From Elainellaceae cyanobacterium (GTDB lineage: Bacteria; Cyanobacteriota; Cyanobacteriia; CAZCXK01): a DNA stretch of 18,595 nucleotides. The first letter of the stretch is position 1. Each line of letters starts with the position of its first letter. A program made the position numbers and the translations under genes. Below are positions 1,155 to 11,717 of the stretch, piece after piece. The stretch is from assembly GCA_051117555.1 (NCBI GenBank), contig JBNPEG010000251.1:1-18595 (forward strand). The letters are read 5' to 3'. Below the pieces are notes generated by a model, which searched no databases, was not told the DNA's origin, and saw only the letters and a list, made by a program, of their open reading frames with translations.

Positions 1155-3212
1155 ATGAGTGAAAAAGTCTCCTCTAGATCACGAAATGTGGCGATCGTAG
1201 GGCCTTATCTCAGCGGTAAAACGTCGCTTCTTGAAAGTTTGCTCTCCGTAAGTGGGGCCCTATCTCGTAAAGGAAAAGTAGCCGATAAAAATACCGTGGG
1301 AGATGGCACTCCAGAAGCCCGCGATCGCCAAATGACTGTGGAAGTAAATGCCGCCAGTACTGAGTACGGCGGCATTCATTTTACATTTTTAGATTGTCCA
1401 GGTTCTATCGAATTTGCTCAGGAAACCTACAATGCTCTCATCGGAGTTGGCGCTGCAATTATTGTTTGTGAACCTGACGTTGAGAAGGTTTTTACCCTAG
1501 CCCCCTTGTTTCAGTTCCTAGATGAATGGGAGATTCCCCATCTCATTTTTATTAATAAGATGGATCGCTCCTATGTTGATTTTAGAGAGCTTTTAAATAC
1601 CCTCAAATCAGTGTCGAGTCGCCCTCTAGTTTTGCATCAATATCCAATTGGTCGAGGAGAAGACCTAACAGGTTTTATCGATCTCATTACTGAGCAAGCC
1701 TATCATTACCATCCGGGTGCTCCCGCTGATCCAGTTCCCCTGCCTGACAATCTTAAAGACCAAGAACAGGCTGCCCGAGAAGAAATGCTAGAAACCTTGG
1801 CAGACTTCGACGACCACCTGCTAGAAGAACTCCTCGAAGACATTAAACCATCTCAGGATGAAATCATTAATGATTTGAAATTAGAACTCGGAGCAGATTT
1901 GATTGTTCCGGTCTTGATTGGGGTAGCAGAACAAGATTTTGGAGTTCGGCCTTTACTGGATGCATTGGTACGAGAGGCTCCCGAACCAGCCATCACGGCT
2001 GAGCGGCGTGGCATTTCTATCGAACCGGACGAGCCACTCGCGCAGGTGCTCAAAACCTACTTCACGCCTCAGGGCAGCAAATTATCTCTCGTGCGAGTTT
2101 GGCGCGGCACCTTAACAGACGGCATTGTTCTTAATGGGGGTCGTCCTAGTGGCATCTATCAGCTACTGGGGCAACAGCAGCAGAGTGTGAGTGAGGCTGG
2201 CATTGGCTCTATTGTCGCGTTGGGGCGTCTAGACGGTGTACATACCGGAGACACACTAAGCACCGAAATGAGCCAAGAACAATCACTGTCAACTGCTGAG
2301 CAACTTAGCCCGGTCTATGCGCTAGCAATCACTTCTGAAAATCGCAGCGACGATGTCAAACTGAGTGGCGCTCTCAACAAACTAATTGAGGAAGATCCAT
2401 CCCTTCGCTGGGAACAACATGGCGATACCCACGAGGTCATTTTATGGGGACAGGGCGACATTCATTTACAAGTTACGCTCGATCGATTGCGCCGCAAACA
2501 TAACTTGACGATGACGTCTCATATGCCTCATGTGCCCTACAAAGAAACCATCCGTCATCCTGCTAACTCAATTCATGGGCGCTATAAACGCCAATCGGGT
2601 GGGCACGGCCAATTTGGAGATGTCTACCTCGATATCAAACCGTTAGGGCGAGGTGAAGGATTTAGCTTTAGCGAATCTATCGTGGGCGGATCTGTTCCTA
2701 AGCAATATATCCCTGCGGTTGAGACGGGAGTTCGTGAATATCTTAATCGGGGCCCGTTAGGATTCCCGATTGTTGATGTTGCGGTCAATTTGACTGATGG
2801 TTCATATCACAGCGTAGATAGCTCGGAGCAAGCATTTAAGCAGGCGGCTCGCCTTGCAATGCAAGATGGTATGGTCAAATGTGAGCCCAGTTTGCTAGAG
2901 CCCATCTTGGCAATTACGATTTCCGTTCCGTCAGACTTCACCTCCAATACGTTGCGCCTCATCAGCACGCGTCGAGGGCAGATCCTAGGCTATGAGGCAA
3001 AACCTAACTGGAAAAATTGGGATGATGTTTCGGCTTATCTTCCTCAAGCCGAAATGTATGACTTAATCGTGGAGTTGCGATCGCTCACGATGGGATCAGG
3101 CTCATTCCGATGGGAATATGACCATCTTCAAGAAGTTCCTGACAAGCTAGTCAACAGTGTTCTAGCACGAACTACTAATGACAATGGAAACGGAAACGAT
3201 CGAGGCAAGTAG
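1155..3212 (+). CDS. fusA: elongation factor G-like translational GTPase (EF-G paralogue)
   Basis: 685 aa; G1 GPYLSGKT, G3 DCPG, G4 NKMD; EEDPSL, GQGDIHL, VPYKETI, KRQSGGHGQFGDV, GSYHSVDSSE and LLEPI motifs; SD AAAGGAG upstream. Confidence 0.95.
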   Translation: MSEKVSSRSRNVAIVGPYLSGKTSLLESLLSVSGALSRKGKVADKNTVGDGTPEARDRQMTVEVNAASTEYGGIHFTFLDCPGSIEFAQETYNALIGVGAAIIVCEPDVEKVFTLAPLFQFLDEWEIPHLIFINKMDRSYVDFRELLNTLKSVSSRPLVLHQYPIGRGEDLTGFIDLITEQAYHYHPGAPADPVPLPDNLKDQEQAAREEMLETLADFDDHLLEELLEDIKPSQDEIINDLKLELGADLIVPVLIGVAEQDFGVRPLLDALVREAPEPAITAERRGISIEPDEPLAQVLKTYFTPQGSKLSLVRVWRGTLTDGIVLNGGRPSGIYQLLGQQQQSVSEAGIGSIVALGRLDGVHTGDTLSTEMSQEQSLSTAEQLSPVYALAITSENRSDDVKLSGALNKLIEEDPSLRWEQHGDTHEVILWGQGDIHLQVTLDRLRRKHNLTMTSHMPHVPYKETIRHPANSIHGRYKRQSGGHGQFGDVYLDIKPLGRGEGFSFSESIVGGSVPKQYIPAVETGVREYLNRGPLGFPIVDVAVNLTDGSYHSVDSSEQAFKQAARLAMQDGMVKCEPSLLEPILAITISVPSDFTSNTLRLISTRRGQILGYEAKPNWKNWDDVSAYLPQAEMYDLIVELRSLTMGSGSFRWEYDHLQEVPDKLVNSVLARTTNDNGNGNDRGK

Positions 3213-3393
3213 AGGCTCAGGACATCTGCGTCCCGTTCAATATTCGAGGTGCGAGGTGCGTTTGAAGAGAGTTGCTTTAAACATAGATTTTCATCCTGGG
3301 AGGTGGAGGGAGGGTGAGGCTGCGACATCATGCTTAACTCAAGCGCACACCGCTACATAAGGTGGAGCGATGTCCAAAATTAATTTGGTTTAT

Positions 3394-3473
3394 ATTTCTC
3401 AACACAAACAAGGAATTCTGTTGAGAAATGTAAAGGAAGAATTTGCATAAATTTATCTCGAATGCAAATTCTT
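3394..3473. promoter_or_regulatory. two adjacent perfect AT-rich inverted repeats (candidate operators or hairpins)
   Basis: ATTTCTCAACA(3394-3404)-N14-TGTTGAGAAAT(3419-3429) and AAGAATTTGCAT(3437-3448)-N13-ATGCAAATTCTT(3462-3473). Confidence 0.45.
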
Positions 3474-3571
3474 AACGTCTGTGGCGTACGCAACTAGATA
3501 ATCGTCTCAATCAGCCTTCCATTTAGATTTTGACGACGAAGCGTGTTCGTATGAACATGATACCCCTTGGA

Positions 3572-3659
3572 TATAGCGATCCTAAATCGCTTGTGAATTG
3601 TGTGTGAGTGGTAGGGCGGGCGCCGTCCCACCACTCACAAGCCATCTGGGATTGCTATA
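3572..3659. mobile_element. MITE-like element with 25-bp terminal inverted repeats and an internal GC-rich hairpin
   Basis: TATAGCGATCCTAAATCGCTTGTGA (3572-3596) matches the reverse complement of TCACAAGCCATCTGGGATTGCTATA (3635-3659) at 21/25; TA at both termini; inner hairpin TGTGAGTGGTAGGGCGG-GCG-CCGTCCCACCACTCACA. Confidence 0.7.
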
Positions 3660-4112
3660 CCTGGAGTGCGATTAGCCACTCATTTTCTATAAATATTCGT
3701 ATACAAGATTAAATTTTATTAAACTAGACTCAGCTTTCTCTGAGGATGTAGTTAATAATGATTAGTAATTAGAAACATTTTTTCTAATCAGTACACATCT
3801 TTTGTACATCTTTTTGATAAAAGCTACCCCAAATTTCAGGTGCCCGCGCTTATTTAAGACAATTTCTTTCAAACAATTAATTCACCGTTCAACAAATCAA
3901 CGAGTAGGTTCCTGAACGTGCTTAGCAGGCTCTTGCAGTTTGTCGTCTAATCGAGACATTGTCAGTTCAGGGCCGATTAGATGTAGGTGCTGTGCACCTT
4001 ATGCCTGCTTAAAGTAGCCAACCTTTGGCTATGGTTTGTAATTGCGAATGACTTCCTAAGCAAGGTTATTTCGAATGGATTAGCGTCACTATGCTGGAAG
4101 GAAAGGTTTAGG

Positions 4113-4346
4113 ATGATTCCGAAAATCGAACATGCGATCGCCCCCTCAACCAAGAACCGTTATTCTGCCCACTCTTCACTCAATGGGTTTCGTCAGCAAA
4201 CTCCAACGTCTGGGTGGGAAGGGTTTTCTCAATGGGTCCATACAAGCGCAAATTGGCTATACATGCTCTGGCTTGGACTGGTCGTGCTCTTGATGGGCGC
4301 GACGGTTGGAGGCGTTTACTTCGTGGTATCAGCGTCTGTGAGATGA
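4113..4346 (+). CDS. 77-aa single-TM protein resembling the N-terminus and helix A of photosystem II D1 (PsbA/ChlF family); miniprotein or truncated psbA relic
   Basis: ATG 4113 preceded by purine-rich GGAAGGAAAGGTTTAGG; SGWEGFSQWVHTSANWLYMLWLG aligns without gaps to D1 SLWE(Q/R)FC(Q/N)W(V/I)TST(N/E)NRLY(V/I)GWFG, followed by a hydrophobic stretch. Confidence 0.7.
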   Translation: MIPKIEHAIAPSTKNRYSAHSSLNGFRQQTPTSGWEGFSQWVHTSANWLYMLWLGLVVLLMGATVGGVYFVVSASVR

Positions 4347-4436
4347 GTCAACCAAATGGCTGAGGTGATTCTATCTGGTTCAGCGAGGATATAGGTTAAA
4401 ATCTTTAGCTGGACATTATTGTGAGGATTAAACACT

Positions 4437-4874
4437 ATGGCATTACCAGTCGGTACGACTGCTCCTGATTTTACAGCCAAGGATACAAACGGCAATACAG
4501 TTTCGTTGTCTGACTATGCAGGCAAGACCGTTGTTCTATATTTTTATCCTAAAGACGATACCCCAGGTTGCACGAAAGAGGCGTGCAGTTTTCGAGATTC
4601 TTATGCTGATTACCAAGGTAAAGATATAGCGGTATTTGGGGTTAGCACCGATGATGAATCGTCTCATCAGCAGTTTACTGATAAGTTTGGCTTGCCGTTT
4701 CCGCTACTTGCCGATGTCGGAGGCACCATCACAAAAGCCTATGATGTAGATGGGGGTGGGTATGCAAAGCGAGTTACCTATGTAATTGATGGCGATCGCA
4801 CCATTGTGAAAGTATACGATCGTGTCAATACGGACACCCATGCGAAGGACATTTTGGCTGAGCTAGGCGTTTAA
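4437..4874 (+). CDS. bcp: peroxiredoxin, BCP/PrxQ subfamily
   Basis: APDF, VVLYFYPKDDTPGCTKEACSFRD (CxxxxC), FPLLAD and KRVTYVID motifs; SD GAGGA. Confidence 0.95.
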   Translation: MALPVGTTAPDFTAKDTNGNTVSLSDYAGKTVVLYFYPKDDTPGCTKEACSFRDSYADYQGKDIAVFGVSTDDESSHQQFTDKFGLPFPLLADVGGTITKAYDVDGGGYAKRVTYVIDGDRTIVKVYDRVNTDTHAKDILAELGV

Positions 4875-5002: not shown

Positions 5003-5032
5003 AAGGACACACAAACCCGTGTGTCCTTCTTT
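5003..5032 (+). terminator. probable intrinsic terminator after bcp
   Basis: AAGGACACAC-AAACCC-GTGTGTCCTT 10-bp stem followed by CTTT. Confidence 0.65.
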
Positions 5033-5157: not shown

Positions 5158-6012
5158 ATGAATCGTCAACCGGTATGCTTAGCGACTATCGTTGGAGTCA
5201 CTCTATTGACCCTCGGTGCCACTGTGGGAATAGATTCGATTGCCCAGTCTGCAGTCGCTGAAGAAAATGAACCCAACGATACATTTGAAAATCGGGAAAC
5301 TCAACCTGCCGACGTAACAATCGTCACTGGAGAACTCACTCAACGATTTGATCCTAGTGATTTTGACTATGAATTTTCAGGCATGATGTCACCCGGAGAG
5401 GCGTCTACCTTCGCAATCGATGACCTCGACGCATCCGAGCCATTTTATGCCTGGATTGACAATGGCTCAGATGGGCCTGATACAGTCATCGGAACTTTTA
5501 ATGCAGCAGGTGAATTGATTGGCACTGACGATGACAGTAGCCCGTCGGGTAATGGTGTTGCGTCAGGAATTGGCGGAACAGCGGGCGATGACGGAATGGT
5601 TCGCCTTGCAGTAACGGGCTTCCCCGATTTCGAATTCCAGGCATTAAATTCGAATGGCGCGTTAGTTCATGAGCAGTCAGGAGAATATCAGGTTCGCGTC
5701 AAGACTGGTATTGATGCTCCTGAGGGGGATGTTGACTACTACAGCATTTCTGGAATCGATCCTGGAACCGGCTTTACACTTGAGGTAACCGATGCCAATT
5801 TCGACTCGATTCTCGTTTGGCTCGATGACGATGGCAACGTGGTAACGGTCGATGATGACGGTGGGACAGAACTGCTTTCTAAAATTCGAGGGTTTGTACC
5901 CCTGAGTGGCAGTATTAACTTCGCGATTAGCGCATTCGGAGATCCAGAATTTACAGGCAATCATATCGAATCGGGTCCGTATTCAATCTCAGTAGAGCTG
6001 ACCGGCGAGTAA
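5158..6012 (+). CDS. secreted acidic protein with two PPC (pre-peptidase C-terminal)-like beta domains
   Basis: Signal peptide ending AVA-EE; EENEPNDTF and GDVDYY motifs; two related segments, DTVIGTFNAAGELIGTDDDS and DSILVWLDDDGNVVTVDDDG. Confidence 0.7.
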   Translation: MNRQPVCLATIVGVTLLTLGATVGIDSIAQSAVAEENEPNDTFENRETQPADVTIVTGELTQRFDPSDFDYEFSGMMSPGEASTFAIDDLDASEPFYAWIDNGSDGPDTVIGTFNAAGELIGTDDDSSPSGNGVASGIGGTAGDDGMVRLAVTGFPDFEFQALNSNGALVHEQSGEYQVRVKTGIDAPEGDVDYYSISGIDPGTGFTLEVTDANFDSILVWLDDDGNVVTVDDDGGTELLSKIRGFVPLSGSINFAISAFGDPEFTGNHIESGPYSISVELTGE

Positions 6013-8681: not shown

Positions 8682-11600
8682 CTATCCAAATCTAAGCTCG
8701 GGTGAATCAGTTAAACTCTGAGTGCTTCCACGAAAGCCATTTGACCTATCCTTATCATCCGTTGGCTCAAGTCCTAGCTCTGCCATCATTTTTTGGACTT
8801 GAGCCGACACTAAGCGATCGGAGTCATGCTCCATAATGGGCAGCAGATTATGGAGTGCTCTAGGAGATGCCATCTGCAAATAGTGCAATACGGCCTCTCG
8901 TACAAACCCGACAGGATGATGCAGGCCAGCAAGAATATGCTCGGTCGTCAAACTCCAGTGAGCCCGTCTAGCCAGATGGAAGCAACAGGCAAGCACCCAA
9001 TCGGATAGGAAGTGACGCAAATCAAGCAGATAACGCAATCGCTGACTTGGAGACATCGGTTCATAGTCAACAATATCAGATAGATTCTGAAGCTTTTCAT
9101 CATTGGGTCGCCGATCGAGGATGCTTAACAGCGCCTTCTTACAGGGTAAATCGATGGCATTATCAAGAATTTCTAATGCGCGGGCGACGCTATTTGCAGA
9201 CTCAGACTGTAAATTAAACGCGGCTGCCTGAATTGAACTCGATGGATATAGAAATCTCATCAGCAAGAAGAGACGCTCAATGACATCGCGTTCTAAATTG
9301 TTGAGTGCTCGTCGCAATAGTTCGGCCTCCTGCTCGTCAATATATTGAGGAGATAAATCAACCAAACTCCCGTAAATTTGCCCCAATAACATCATCTCTT
9401 GATGTATTAGAGCTTCTACGCCTCGCCGTCCTAACACATCTGCTACGGCATCGACCCCCTTTTCTTGAGGCAGTTTCAGCAATGTTCTCAGTAAACTTCG
9501 ACGAGCAGTTCCCCACGATGAATTCAAATGATTTACGAGTACATCGACCGCATCAGGAGTGCCGATTTGTCCAATAACAGACCAAGCACACGTGCGAACG
9601 ATATCGGGCTTATAAGGATCTTCTGCTGCTTCGACTAACCAAGGAATTGCATCACTATCAAGCCTGATCAACGACCGCATTGCAGCATCTCGCGTCGATT
9701 TGTAATAGAGTCCGCGAATTAAGCAGGGATAATATTCTTCTAAATGGGTTGCGGCGATCGCCTCTAGTAGAGCACATCGAACTCGCAGCGAATCATCCTG
9801 CAAAAGAGGTTCGATATAAAGTCGCAAAGCCTGAAGATACGTTGCATCCCCTAATGCTCGACATGCCATGACCCTTTCTCGTTCGTATTTATTAGTTAGC
9901 ATCCGGCGCAAAAGATCAGTTGCTTCTGCCTTTTGAAGAGAATTGCCATGGCGCAATAGAAGCGCTGCTGCCGTTCCTCTGATAGCTGAGTCAACGTCTG
10001 CCTCTAGATGTGGAAGAAGATCTTGAACATTGGGACTCGGATGGGTTCGCCAAATGTAGCGGAGTGCCAACGCAAACGTATCAGGGGAAAGAGGCTGTCG
10101 AAGAAGTGATTGCACATATTCGAGACTGGCAGCATTCGGATAATTGAGCATTGCCTCTAGACTCTTAAATTGGAGACGAGGACTTAAGCTAGCCAGTCGA
10201 GGGGCGACAACATCCCCAATATGTTTGGGATCGATATGTTCGAGCAGTTCAATGCAGGATTGTTTATCCGCTTCTGAACTAGGCCGCTCCAGTGCATCAA
10301 TGACCGATCGCTTAAAGGCATGAAGATCAACCTCGTGTAAACTCAGTTGCCCCCTCTCCGCACTTAGCACCAATAATCCAACATATCGACTGCGAAGCAA
10401 AAATACTGCGACTAACCAAATCCCAGCGAAGAGCGTAATCTGTGCCAGAAAGATGCGATTAAGGGTGCCCTGGACAAACAACTCATTCGCAGACGGTAAT
10501 ACCCAATGAAAAAACCAAATCGTAAGGAGAATTCCGGCTCCAGTTAATCCCGTCGATAACGGTTCGGCAAAGCCTCGTACGTCTGACTCAATTCGACTTC
10601 GCAACCGATCTGGAATCGCTTGAAAGAGAACGGGGGCCATTCCAGCGACGAGGGTATATCGCAGTAGCTCATCGACAAATTTCAGCGTAATCACGCCAAC
10701 AAATAAACCAACTAACCCAATTAGGGAAAGGAATCCTAACCCTAGGATTAGCAATGGAGGAAGCAATGCAATTTTAAACACCCCCATGCGCTCAATCATT
10801 CGACTCGACACAAACCATTGCGTCAGCAGTTCAAAAATACCGAGAGTGCCGCTAAATAACCCGATAAAGTCTGCGATATTTCCTGCATTGAGATTGAGGT
10901 TTTGTTCTAACTGTCTCAGGTATTGAAAATCAAGCAGGAGTGACAAGACCTGAGCCATAACGAAGAATGTAATGACTAGCACGACATAGCGATAAAGCGG
11001 ACCTTGCAACCGCCGAGTCGTGAAGTCCGTTTGCTTTTCGTGTAAGGTTCGCCTCGGTAAATCTGGAAACGATTGCTGATAGGTTTGGCCGATGTAGTAA
11101 AGAATGCCACCTCCAATCAGGAGCATGATACATGCAACTAAAATGACATTCTCCAACCCCACAAGTTGCCGCAATACGGGCATTGAAAACCCGCTGAGTA
11201 CGTCAGCTAGCAAAATACCGCTGCTAATTAAAGGATAGGCACGTTTAATTTCTCGAATATTGAACAGTTGATTTGCTGTAATTGACGTATTGAGTTCATT
11301 GAGGATATAGATTGCTTCTAGCCACAGCCGCATCAAAAAAATGGCATAGCCGCCTAGAAAGATTGGATTGAGCCCAATGCGGAAGAGGAAAAGTGGAACC
11401 GCCATGAGCACCGGAATGACAACAATGACATGGCGAAGCAATAGAGTTTTCTGAAGTCGCGAGTAGACGAACCCCAAAACAGTTCCCATTCCGGCACTGG
11501 CGATATAAACCCACGGAAGAGAATTAGCGCCGTATTCTCCCAAAAATAAGGCTGATGCACTGAACTCTAGCCACAGAATGCCTACACAAATGCACGTATA

Positions 11601-11717
11601 AAACGCAAACATTAGGAACGTTCGTCCACTTTCCTCAGGACGAAGATTGAACCAGTTTAGTAGCCTCCGTCTTACTGGAGTGATATTGGGGGTAGAAGCT
11701 CTCCTGTTTGCGTCCAT
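8682..11717 (-). CDS. NTT/TLC-like MFS transporter fused to HEAT repeats
   Basis: N-terminal ~445 aa multi-TM region with LFLGEYGANSLPWVY and ANQLFNIREIKRAYPLI motifs; C-terminal HEAT-like repeats (LQDDSLRVRCALLEAIA, HPVGFVREAVL, DSDRLV). Confidence 0.85.
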   Translation of the reverse strand: MDANRRASTPNITPVRRRLLNWFNLRPEESGRTFLMFAFYTCICVGILWLEFSASALFLGEYGANSLPWVYIASAGMGTVLGFVYSRLQKTLLLRHVIVVIPVLMAVPLFLFRIGLNPIFLGGYAIFLMRLWLEAIYILNELNTSITANQLFNIREIKRAYPLISSGILLADVLSGFSMPVLRQLVGLENVILVACIMLLIGGGILYYIGQTYQQSFPDLPRRTLHEKQTDFTTRRLQGPLYRYVVLVITFFVMAQVLSLLLDFQYLRQLEQNLNLNAGNIADFIGLFSGTLGIFELLTQWFVSSRMIERMGVFKIALLPPLLILGLGFLSLIGLVGLFVGVITLKFVDELLRYTLVAGMAPVLFQAIPDRLRSRIESDVRGFAEPLSTGLTGAGILLTIWFFHWVLPSANELFVQGTLNRIFLAQITLFAGIWLVAVFLLRSRYVGLLVLSAERGQLSLHEVDLHAFKRSVIDALERPSSEADKQSCIELLEHIDPKHIGDVVAPRLASLSPRLQFKSLEAMLNYPNAASLEYVQSLLRQPLSPDTFALALRYIWRTHPSPNVQDLLPHLEADVDSAIRGTAAALLLRHGNSLQKAEATDLLRRMLTNKYERERVMACRALGDATYLQALRLYIEPLLQDDSLRVRCALLEAIAATHLEEYYPCLIRGLYYKSTRDAAMRSLIRLDSDAIPWLVEAAEDPYKPDIVRTCAWSVIGQIGTPDAVDVLVNHLNSSWGTARRSLLRTLLKLPQEKGVDAVADVLGRRGVEALIHQEMMLLGQIYGSLVDLSPQYIDEQEAELLRRALNNLERDVIERLFLLMRFLYPSSSIQAAAFNLQSESANSVARALEILDNAIDLPCKKALLSILDRRPNDEKLQNLSDIVDYEPMSPSQRLRYLLDLRHFLSDWVLACCFHLARRAHWSLTTEHILAGLHHPVGFVREAVLHYLQMASPRALHNLLPIMEHDSDRLVSAQVQKMMAELGLEPTDDKDRSNGFRGSTQSLTDSPELRFG

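Follow-up and report, generated by a model that had tools for sequence, protein, structure and literature searches.

What is a 77-residue protein that resembles the beginning of the photosystem II subunit D1 doing as a free-standing gene, and is it a gene at all? The question is raised by an open reading frame on the forward strand of an 18,595-nucleotide stretch of DNA from an Elainellaceae cyanobacterium (hereafter the window). The frame occupies positions 4113..4346, with its ATG at 4113 and its stop codon at 4344-4346, and its product (P0001) carries no annotation in the sources other than hypothetical protein. A first-pass annotation made from the letters alone had described an intact short frame with a purine-rich ribosome-binding site, and coordinates and sequence are indeed as it had them: a Shine–Dalgarno-like GGAAGGAAAGG lies on the forward strand at 4096..4106, 6 nt before the ATG. 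AGGAGGA stands at the equivalent place before the miniprotein gene of another genus, and the 50 nt preceding the ATG (4061-4110) are 94-96% identical across three genomes of the window's genus.

The protein falls into four consecutive parts, all encoded on the forward strand. Residues 1-32 (4113..4208) make up a polar N-terminal extension that resembles the extension of ChlF-type proteins, as judged from a Met1-to-Met1 BLASTP alignment and a ChlF N-terminal HMM. Residues 33-48 (4209..4256), which align to D1 residues ~12-27, correspond to the surface helix and interfacial motif at the N-terminus of D1. Hydropathy, the predicted model and an alignment to D1 that extends up to residue ~52 identify residues 49-72 (4257..4328) as a transmembrane helix, the counterpart of D1 helix A. 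The five residues after the helix, 73-77 (SASVR; 4329..4343), form a C-terminal tail predicted to emerge on the opposite side of the membrane.

The family has five known members of 76-77 aa (the orthologues having 77, 77, 77 and 76 aa), as defined by an HMM search run exhaustively over 1.84 billion cluster representatives; a word-indexed search of 5.8 billion clusters returned two close homologues. The gene is present in all four genomes of the order that were examined, three from the same genus (G000, G001 and G002) and one from another genus (G003), and the miniproteins of the two genera are 32-38% identical. A scan of genome contigs for further members recovered the three known relatives only, and longer or fused forms were not seen among 8000 candidates, which is weak evidence. 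Two further sequences from the HMM search, P0006 and P0007, are long repetitive proteins and were rejected as spurious; the single locus from a metagenome scan, matching residues 61-76 only, was taken as spurious too. Among related genomes, a seemingly short D1-like frame (L005 in G011) proved to be a normal psbA cut by N's. Of 10 further short-frame matches, picked for the small size of their open frame, nine are situated at contig ends and were taken, with their sequences unread, as assembly-cut psbA, and the one internal to a contig is an unrelated 255-aa protein. In that set, nothing outside the order looked like an independent stand-alone copy.

The pattern of substitution is that of a protein-coding gene. 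Nei–Gojobori dN/dS for the miniprotein across the three same-genus genomes is 0.24, 0.22 and 0.27, values drawn from close kin that are not independent samples; for the neighbouring prxQ gene in the same genomes the ratio is 0.01-0.06. Synonymous changes are enriched in the miniprotein gene (Fisher p 1.6e-4, 6.9e-6 and 2.5e-3), about half of its nucleotide differences fall at third codon positions, and the extension, the surface helix and the membrane helix each have an omega of 0.15-0.42 within the genus. The two other forward frames are interrupted by stops in the orthologues, and only the miniprotein frame is open in all four genomes. We conclude from these patterns that the ORF is a real protein-coding gene under purifying selection.

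It had been proposed from the sequence that the frame is a domesticated fragment and not a product of random decay, a proposal that dN/dS was to help test, and the ratios of 0.22-0.27 bear it out, as do the retained length and the lack of any psbA remnant in the window. A decaying remnant of psbA or chlF, still open by chance, might be suspected of any fragment of a much larger gene that is annotated as hypothetical protein only, but is very unlikely because the frame is selected, because it is the single open one and because the genome's own D1 and ChlF, used as queries against the translated window, revealed no other psbA-like piece, downstream debris included; length has been kept in five members out of five even at 32-38% identity, and the idea is largely refuted.

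The likeness to D1 was then a matter of specificity. Aligned without gaps, residues 33-55 share 10/23 identities with the D1 of the same genome (L013) and 12/23 with the D1 of a relative (locus L007), the upper figure being the one originally reported. In NCBIfam the sole match at E<=10 is the psbA family TIGR01151 (E 0.001), with residues 27-70 placed on profile positions 6-49; the score of 17.8 bits lies below the family cut-off of 596.05, and by this curated cut-off the miniprotein is not a member. Pfam gave no match at E<=1, Photo_RC (PF00124) included. Used as a single query, the miniprotein matched psbA-length frames through its residues ~25-70 in 40 of 41 related genomes, the lone miss being a genome that is 73% complete. 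A profile built from four family sequences, run against all PDB sequences, produced 56 matches at E<=10, of which 53 are D1 chains; all 26 matches with E<0.001 are D1 (best E 5.9e-6), and the alignment is always N-terminus to N-terminus, query residues 26-71 lying on D1 residues 5-52. The three matches that are not D1 comprise two cytochrome oxidase subunits (E ~0.09) and one protein at E 9.3.

The same specificity is seen within the genome. Against a control set of all 68,831 translated stop-to-stop frames of at least 40 aa, the only matches to the family HMM at E<=10 are the miniprotein itself and four psbA/chlF genes. With the ChlF N-terminal HMM, the miniprotein (E 3.8e-7) ranks right behind these four genes and ahead of PsbD (9e-4), noise setting in from E 0.22. 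BLASTP of the miniprotein gave E 7e-7 to the genome's own ChlF and 5e-6 to its own D1. The profile comparison with PsbA that the first-pass annotation had called for has therefore yielded significant, specific and in-register D1 matches in NCBIfam, in the PDB and under genome-wide control. On these profile matches the miniprotein is homologous to the N-terminal surface helix and helix A of PsbA. A chance resemblance, in which an unrelated Trp-rich juxtamembrane segment happens to precede a hydrophobic helix, draws on the shortness and partly hydrophobic character of the region, on the blank Pfam result and on a comparison with a protein atlas in which the neighbours are generic small proteins all scoring below 0.9; it is very improbable in the face of matches that are reciprocal, specific and in register, and the genome-wide control largely refutes it.

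The miniprotein has a single hydrophobic helix, the best 19-residue hydropathy window being residues 54-72 (Kyte–Doolittle 2.28). Its basic residues lie on the N side of this helix and five residues follow beyond it. It is predicted to be a C-tail-anchored single-pass protein with its ~50 N-terminal residues in the cytoplasm, and this N-in topology agrees with the stromal location of the D1 N-terminus given in the excerpted text of PMC10665015. An AlphaFold (AF2) model has a mean pLDDT of 68.6 and consists of one helix over residues 33-76, with block means of 87 (41-50), 96 (51-60) and 91 (61-70); pLDDT is below 50 at residues 1-17 and 29-31, and a helix at 18-27 is weakly supported. PsbA proteins are recognised by five helices and by ligands to pigments, iron and quinone, and a 77-residue chain with one hydrophobic helix has neither. 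The miniprotein, judged on its sequence, is not a PsbA reaction-centre subunit, yet it is homologous to the N-terminal module of one.

Within the family, the interfacial motif keeps the D1-like residues W41, T44, L49, Y50 and W53 invariant, and further invariant residues, L60, M61, T64, V65, V68, Y69 and V72, lie on one face of the helix. Three positions said to be in register with D1 helix A (T30, V34 and Y35, counted from the first Trp) correspond to T64, V68 and Y69 and are thus among the invariant ones. The W-E-x-F-x-x-W pattern proposed as conserved has fared less evenly: its second Trp, W41, is invariant, whereas the first is in register in one of five members: two have Gln at that position, and in the remaining two the Trp is displaced by one residue. 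Alignments to the genome's own D1 and to the L007 D1 also place other residues at the proline and glycines of D1 helix A, so that D1-type packing may be lost.

The downstream neighbour of the miniprotein gene is a prxQ/bcp peroxiredoxin gene on the same strand (4437..4874; AhpC-TSA, E 1.8e-41), which begins 90 nt after the stop codon, as had been noted. The intervening spacer (4347..4436) is conserved at 83-92% identity, no terminator-like site was found in it, and a terminator-like hairpin follows prxQ at 5003..5028 on the forward strand. Upstream, at a distance of ~900 nt, three of the four genomes have an EF-G-like GTPase gene (1155..3212, forward strand in the window). In G000 and G001 the order is EF-G-like gene, ~900 nt, miniprotein gene, prxQ and a gene for a secreted protein; in G002 a different gene, not EF-G-like, stands upstream and prxQ again follows; and in G003, from the other genus, the EF-G-like gene and ~940 nt precede the miniprotein gene, which is followed by a convergent gene for a PEP-utilising enzyme. 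The suggested link to the peroxiredoxin is weakened by this comparison: prxQ adjoins in the three same-genus genomes and is absent from this position in the other genus. The expectation of same-length orthologues next to bcp has likewise held for the length, in all five members, and for the adjacency in one genus only.

These arrangements bear on the possibility that the frame acts as a leader peptide or upstream ORF, its translation controlling prxQ and its product having no function of its own. The 90-nt distance to prxQ, the high conservation of the spacer and the absence of a terminator-like site between the genes are what such a leader would show, but constant linkage would be expected as well, and prxQ is downstream in one genus only, which argues against this role. 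The gene of the other genus keeps its 77 aa with the PEP-utilising enzyme gene next to it instead of prxQ, and selection acts on the amino acids along the entire length. We regard a leader peptide as improbable.

The gene appears to be preceded by regulatory DNA. An AT-rich non-coding region at 3660..4112 on the forward strand is 80-84% identical across the three same-genus genomes, with blocks of 82-96%, and this conservation seems to exceed what unconstrained sites would retain at a dS of 0.26-0.57. The region is a probable promoter, operator or long, possibly structured, 5' UTR. The other-genus gene, too, is preceded by a copy (82%, E 3e-4) of the 34-nt block 3751-3784, and an inverted repeat (I2; 3758..3798, on neither strand in particular) with 18-nt arms and a 5-nt spacer sits inside the most conserved upstream block. 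Within the region, 3668-3817 is a stretch of particular note. Rfam returned nothing at gathering score across the window, nor at E<=1 for 3200-4450.

Other features of the window may be recorded here. The EF-G paralogue at 1155-3212 has 685 aa and all five EF-G domains, and is found upstream of the miniprotein gene in two genera. Where the intergenic region is not conserved, a GC-rich hairpin is found at 3603-3639, with a 3-nt loop and 17-nt arms that are 88% complementary. The frame at 5158-6012 encodes a 284-aa, Asp/Gly-rich protein with an N-terminal hydrophobic signal-like segment; it stands beside prxQ in G001 too, and no Pfam family scored above threshold. On the reverse strand, 8682-11717 encodes 1011 aa with HEAT or PBS-lyase-type repeats and, at residues 128-340, a weak likeness to TLC ATP/ADP transporters (E 1.4e-5).

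From which member of the psbA family was the fragment taken? The genome encodes a standard D1 of 359 aa and a PsbA paralogue of 376 aa that is 68% identical to a protein named light-dependent chlorophyll f synthase in UniRef. The paralogue has Gln-Asp before REWE in helix B, a motif that is the ChlF signature; the corresponding region is absent from the miniprotein. ChlF is also defined by loss of the ligands to the Mn cluster. The gene of the paralogue heads a far-red-light photoacclimation (FaRLiP) cluster on contig C193 of the genome (L034:1035-2165 onward, and L035) that comprises chlF, psaA, psaB, psaL, rfpB, rfpA, rfpC, apc paralogues, psbD, psbC and psbB. Described by product, these genes include a response regulator of 655 aa, a kinase of the phytochrome type, a CheY-like protein, four allophycocyanin-like genes and an ApcE-like linker, and the cluster looks complete. 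Elsewhere in the genome, contig ends truncate further psbA copies (C248:103497-104024, C158:34938-35063 and C209:2342-2467), which makes the number of D1 genes in the assembly uncertain.

The D1-like core cannot discriminate between the two candidate donors, scoring 21.2 bits on the ChlF profile and 21.3 on that of standard D1; the case for a chlF-type origin is therefore made by the extension and not by the core. BLASTP aligned residues 1-69 of the miniprotein with the genome's own ChlF, Met1 on Met1 (E 7e-7, as above), while standard D1 aligned over residues 28-64 only. To describe ChlF-type N-termini we used 94 proteins bearing the Gln-Asp motif, selected from 120 matches listed, and most of the ChlF-type proteins listed open with a sequence like M(M/I)TQFGRAIA followed by 20-35 polar residues. 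The number of residues before the first motif Trp is ~34 in the miniprotein, ~30-38 in most of the ChlF-type proteins listed and ~12 in D1. An HMM of the ChlF N-terminus aligned all five miniproteins, with scores of 32.5, 27.6, 24.5, 24.0 and 9.2 bits, three of them from residue 1, and with the extension included the HMM score is 31.9 bits instead of 19.7. For the three same-genus members, 1/300, 0/300 and 0/300 shuffles of residues 2-32 attained the real score; for the two from the other genus the figures are 26/300 and 21/300, which is not significant. A position-specific matrix of the first 10 ChlF residues gave the same-genus miniproteins 12.0-15.5 bits, true ChlF proteins scoring 8.6-24.6, and these miniprotein scores were equalled or beaten by 56, 4 and 3 of the 36,254 Met-starts in the genome; for the two other-genus members the p values are 0.12 and 0.037. 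In a family-level profile–profile comparison of the extension alone, 34/200 column shuffles attained the real score, and the match is not significant. The DNA of the gene and its upstream region, compared with chlF and psbA 5' regions, showed no likeness beyond a 25-nt in-register stretch.

The extension match to ChlF is, by these scores, significant in the window's genus only. Because the ~32 residues that precede the D1-like motif match the ChlF extension, the donor was probably a chlF-type paralogue (super-rogue D1) and not canonical D1, and we favour this origin with fair, though far from complete, confidence. The alternative is that the donor was a canonical D1 gene and that the extension was acquired later through an upstream start, its likeness to ChlF having arisen by chance. 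Such a history would sit well with the equal core scores and with an extension match that loses significance in the second genus and at the level of the family. Full-length ChlF and RfpA kinase orthologues, moreover, were found in G000 and G001 only, G002 (99% complete) and G003 yielding neither, so that two carriers of the miniprotein lack a detectable chlF. A canonical donor sits less well with the first 10 residues of the same-genus proteins, which score within the range of true ChlF and are matched by only 3-56 of 36,254 starts, and with a length before the Trp that fits ChlF and not D1. We consider a canonical donor unlikely, though deserving of some weight. Whichever gene was copied, presence in two of four genomes without a found ChlF indicates that the miniprotein's function does not require ChlF.

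Comparison with known proteins helps to place the miniprotein. It resembles ChlF (PsbA4, a group 1 PsbA) in the length of the extension, in this genus also in the opening motif, and in the succession of extension, surface-helix motif and helix A, the alignment running from Met1. It differs in ending at helix A, without helices B-E, the Gln-Asp site or the pigment and quinone ligands, in occurring also where no ChlF was found, and in an identity of only 26-32%. The in-register matches to residues ~5-52 of D1 in solved structures and the predicted N-in topology are shared with D1; one helix instead of five, a score of 17.8 bits against a cut-off of 596, the non-conservation of the residue equivalent to Trp-14 and 21-22 extra N-terminal residues set the two apart. 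PsbI and the high-light-inducible proteins (Hlips) resemble the miniprotein in size and single-pass architecture, but it has no Pfam family match, and no sequence relation to the genome's own PsbI was found. Glu, Asn and Arg in the Hlip motif serve chlorophyll binding, and the miniprotein helix, LGLVVLLMGATVGGVYFVV, contains none of the three. A further parallel is with the MicroProteins of plant biology, small competitors that originate in the interaction domain of some larger protein. Like them, the miniprotein is short, comes from one module of a larger protein and is selected beside full-length paralogues; it differs in its parent, a membrane reaction-centre subunit, and in that its competitor role is putative. 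In the literature we found no microprotein case with a reaction-centre subunit as parent.

Taken as a whole, the best explanation may be a C-tail-anchored microprotein that derives from the 5' end of a psbA-family gene and mimics the N-terminal module of D1 or ChlF, an explanation to which we give somewhat less than an even chance. Partial duplication of the 5' end of such a gene, most probably of a chlF-type paralogue, would have given rise to the miniprotein gene. The product would have kept three consecutive parts, namely the N-terminal extension, the surface helix with its W...T...LY..W interfacial motif and transmembrane helix A, and the cofactor-binding core of the parent would have been lost entirely. 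Its 50 N-terminal residues, in the cytoplasm, would then mimic the N-terminal module of D1 or ChlF and occupy the usual partners of that module: PsbI, which docks on the N-terminal helix of D1, and/or FtsH, the protease that begins to degrade D1 from its N-terminal tail, or else an insertion or assembly factor. The outcome would be a tuned assembly or turnover of D1-type proteins. Mimicry is the simplest reading because what is selected along its entire length is a membrane-anchored free copy of the module. Competition for partners such as PsbI or FtsH is the best guess at its function, but a tentative one and less likely than not. More doubtful still, and on balance unlikely, is its sharpest form, a natural dominant-negative style microprotein: an anchored duplicate of the D1/ChlF N-terminal degron and PsbI-docking module which, through competition for FtsH or PsbI, would set the rate at which D1-type proteins are assembled or degraded.

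Published work on the parent proteins gives this proposal its context. According to the excerpted text of PMC10665015, Trp-14 in the first helix of D1 is hydrogen-bonded to Ser-25 of PsbI, loosening of this Trp-14/PsbI contact leads to faster FtsH-dependent degradation of D1, and the D1 N-terminal helix is needed for proper degradation, for which Komenda et al. 2007 is cited. For ChlF, an excerpt of PMC11946780 describes a 22-residue extension in C. thermalis 7203. Without it, Chl f amounted to 1.4% of Chl a, up from 0.1%; the rise on deletion implies that the extension acts negatively on ChlF output, and the reason for the effect is left open by the authors there.

The main rival to the microprotein proposal is that the fragment was exapted for an unrelated job, as a generic small membrane protein that has no link to photosystem II, D1 or ChlF and retains the motif for insertion or stability of the helix. 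Trp-14, through which D1 contacts PsbI, has an in-register equivalent in one of five members, which counts against mimicry of D1 towards PsbI and, together with the replaced proline and glycines of helix A, is what a protein freed from D1 packing would show. The miniprotein evolves fast, and at 32-38% identity between genera it is by eye much less alike than the neighbouring EF-G-like protein; no photosynthesis gene is found among its neighbours; and half of the genomes that carry it are those without ChlF and RfpA. Against this stands the location of the conservation: the family's most conserved stretch is the D1-like interfacial motif W41, T44, L49, Y50 and W53, and the polar extension, unneeded by a mere membrane anchor, is itself under purifying selection (omega 0.20-0.34). 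An unrelated job is less likely than not, though nearly as probable as the mimic mechanism.

In the literature found, including the excerpted text of the 2025 survey of D1 structural diversity (PMC12096807), no stand-alone gene for a D1 or ChlF N-terminus is described. New here, and unnoticed in the first-pass annotation, is the apparent likeness between the ChlF extension and the 32 residues that lead up to the D1-like motif. The D1 N-terminal tail and first helix are, in the excerpt of PMC10665015, the site at which FtsH starts the removal of D1 and the dock of PsbI. A free-standing, selected copy of the D1/ChlF module would be a ready-made probe of the module's partners, and such a probe could show whether occupying them alters photosystem II repair or chlorophyll f synthesis. 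The locus suggests, more generally, that reaction-centre genes can yield new small proteins by partial duplication, whose products gene callers label as hypothetical. Should the microprotein proposal be true, the miniprotein would be the first known regulator carved from a reaction-centre subunit.
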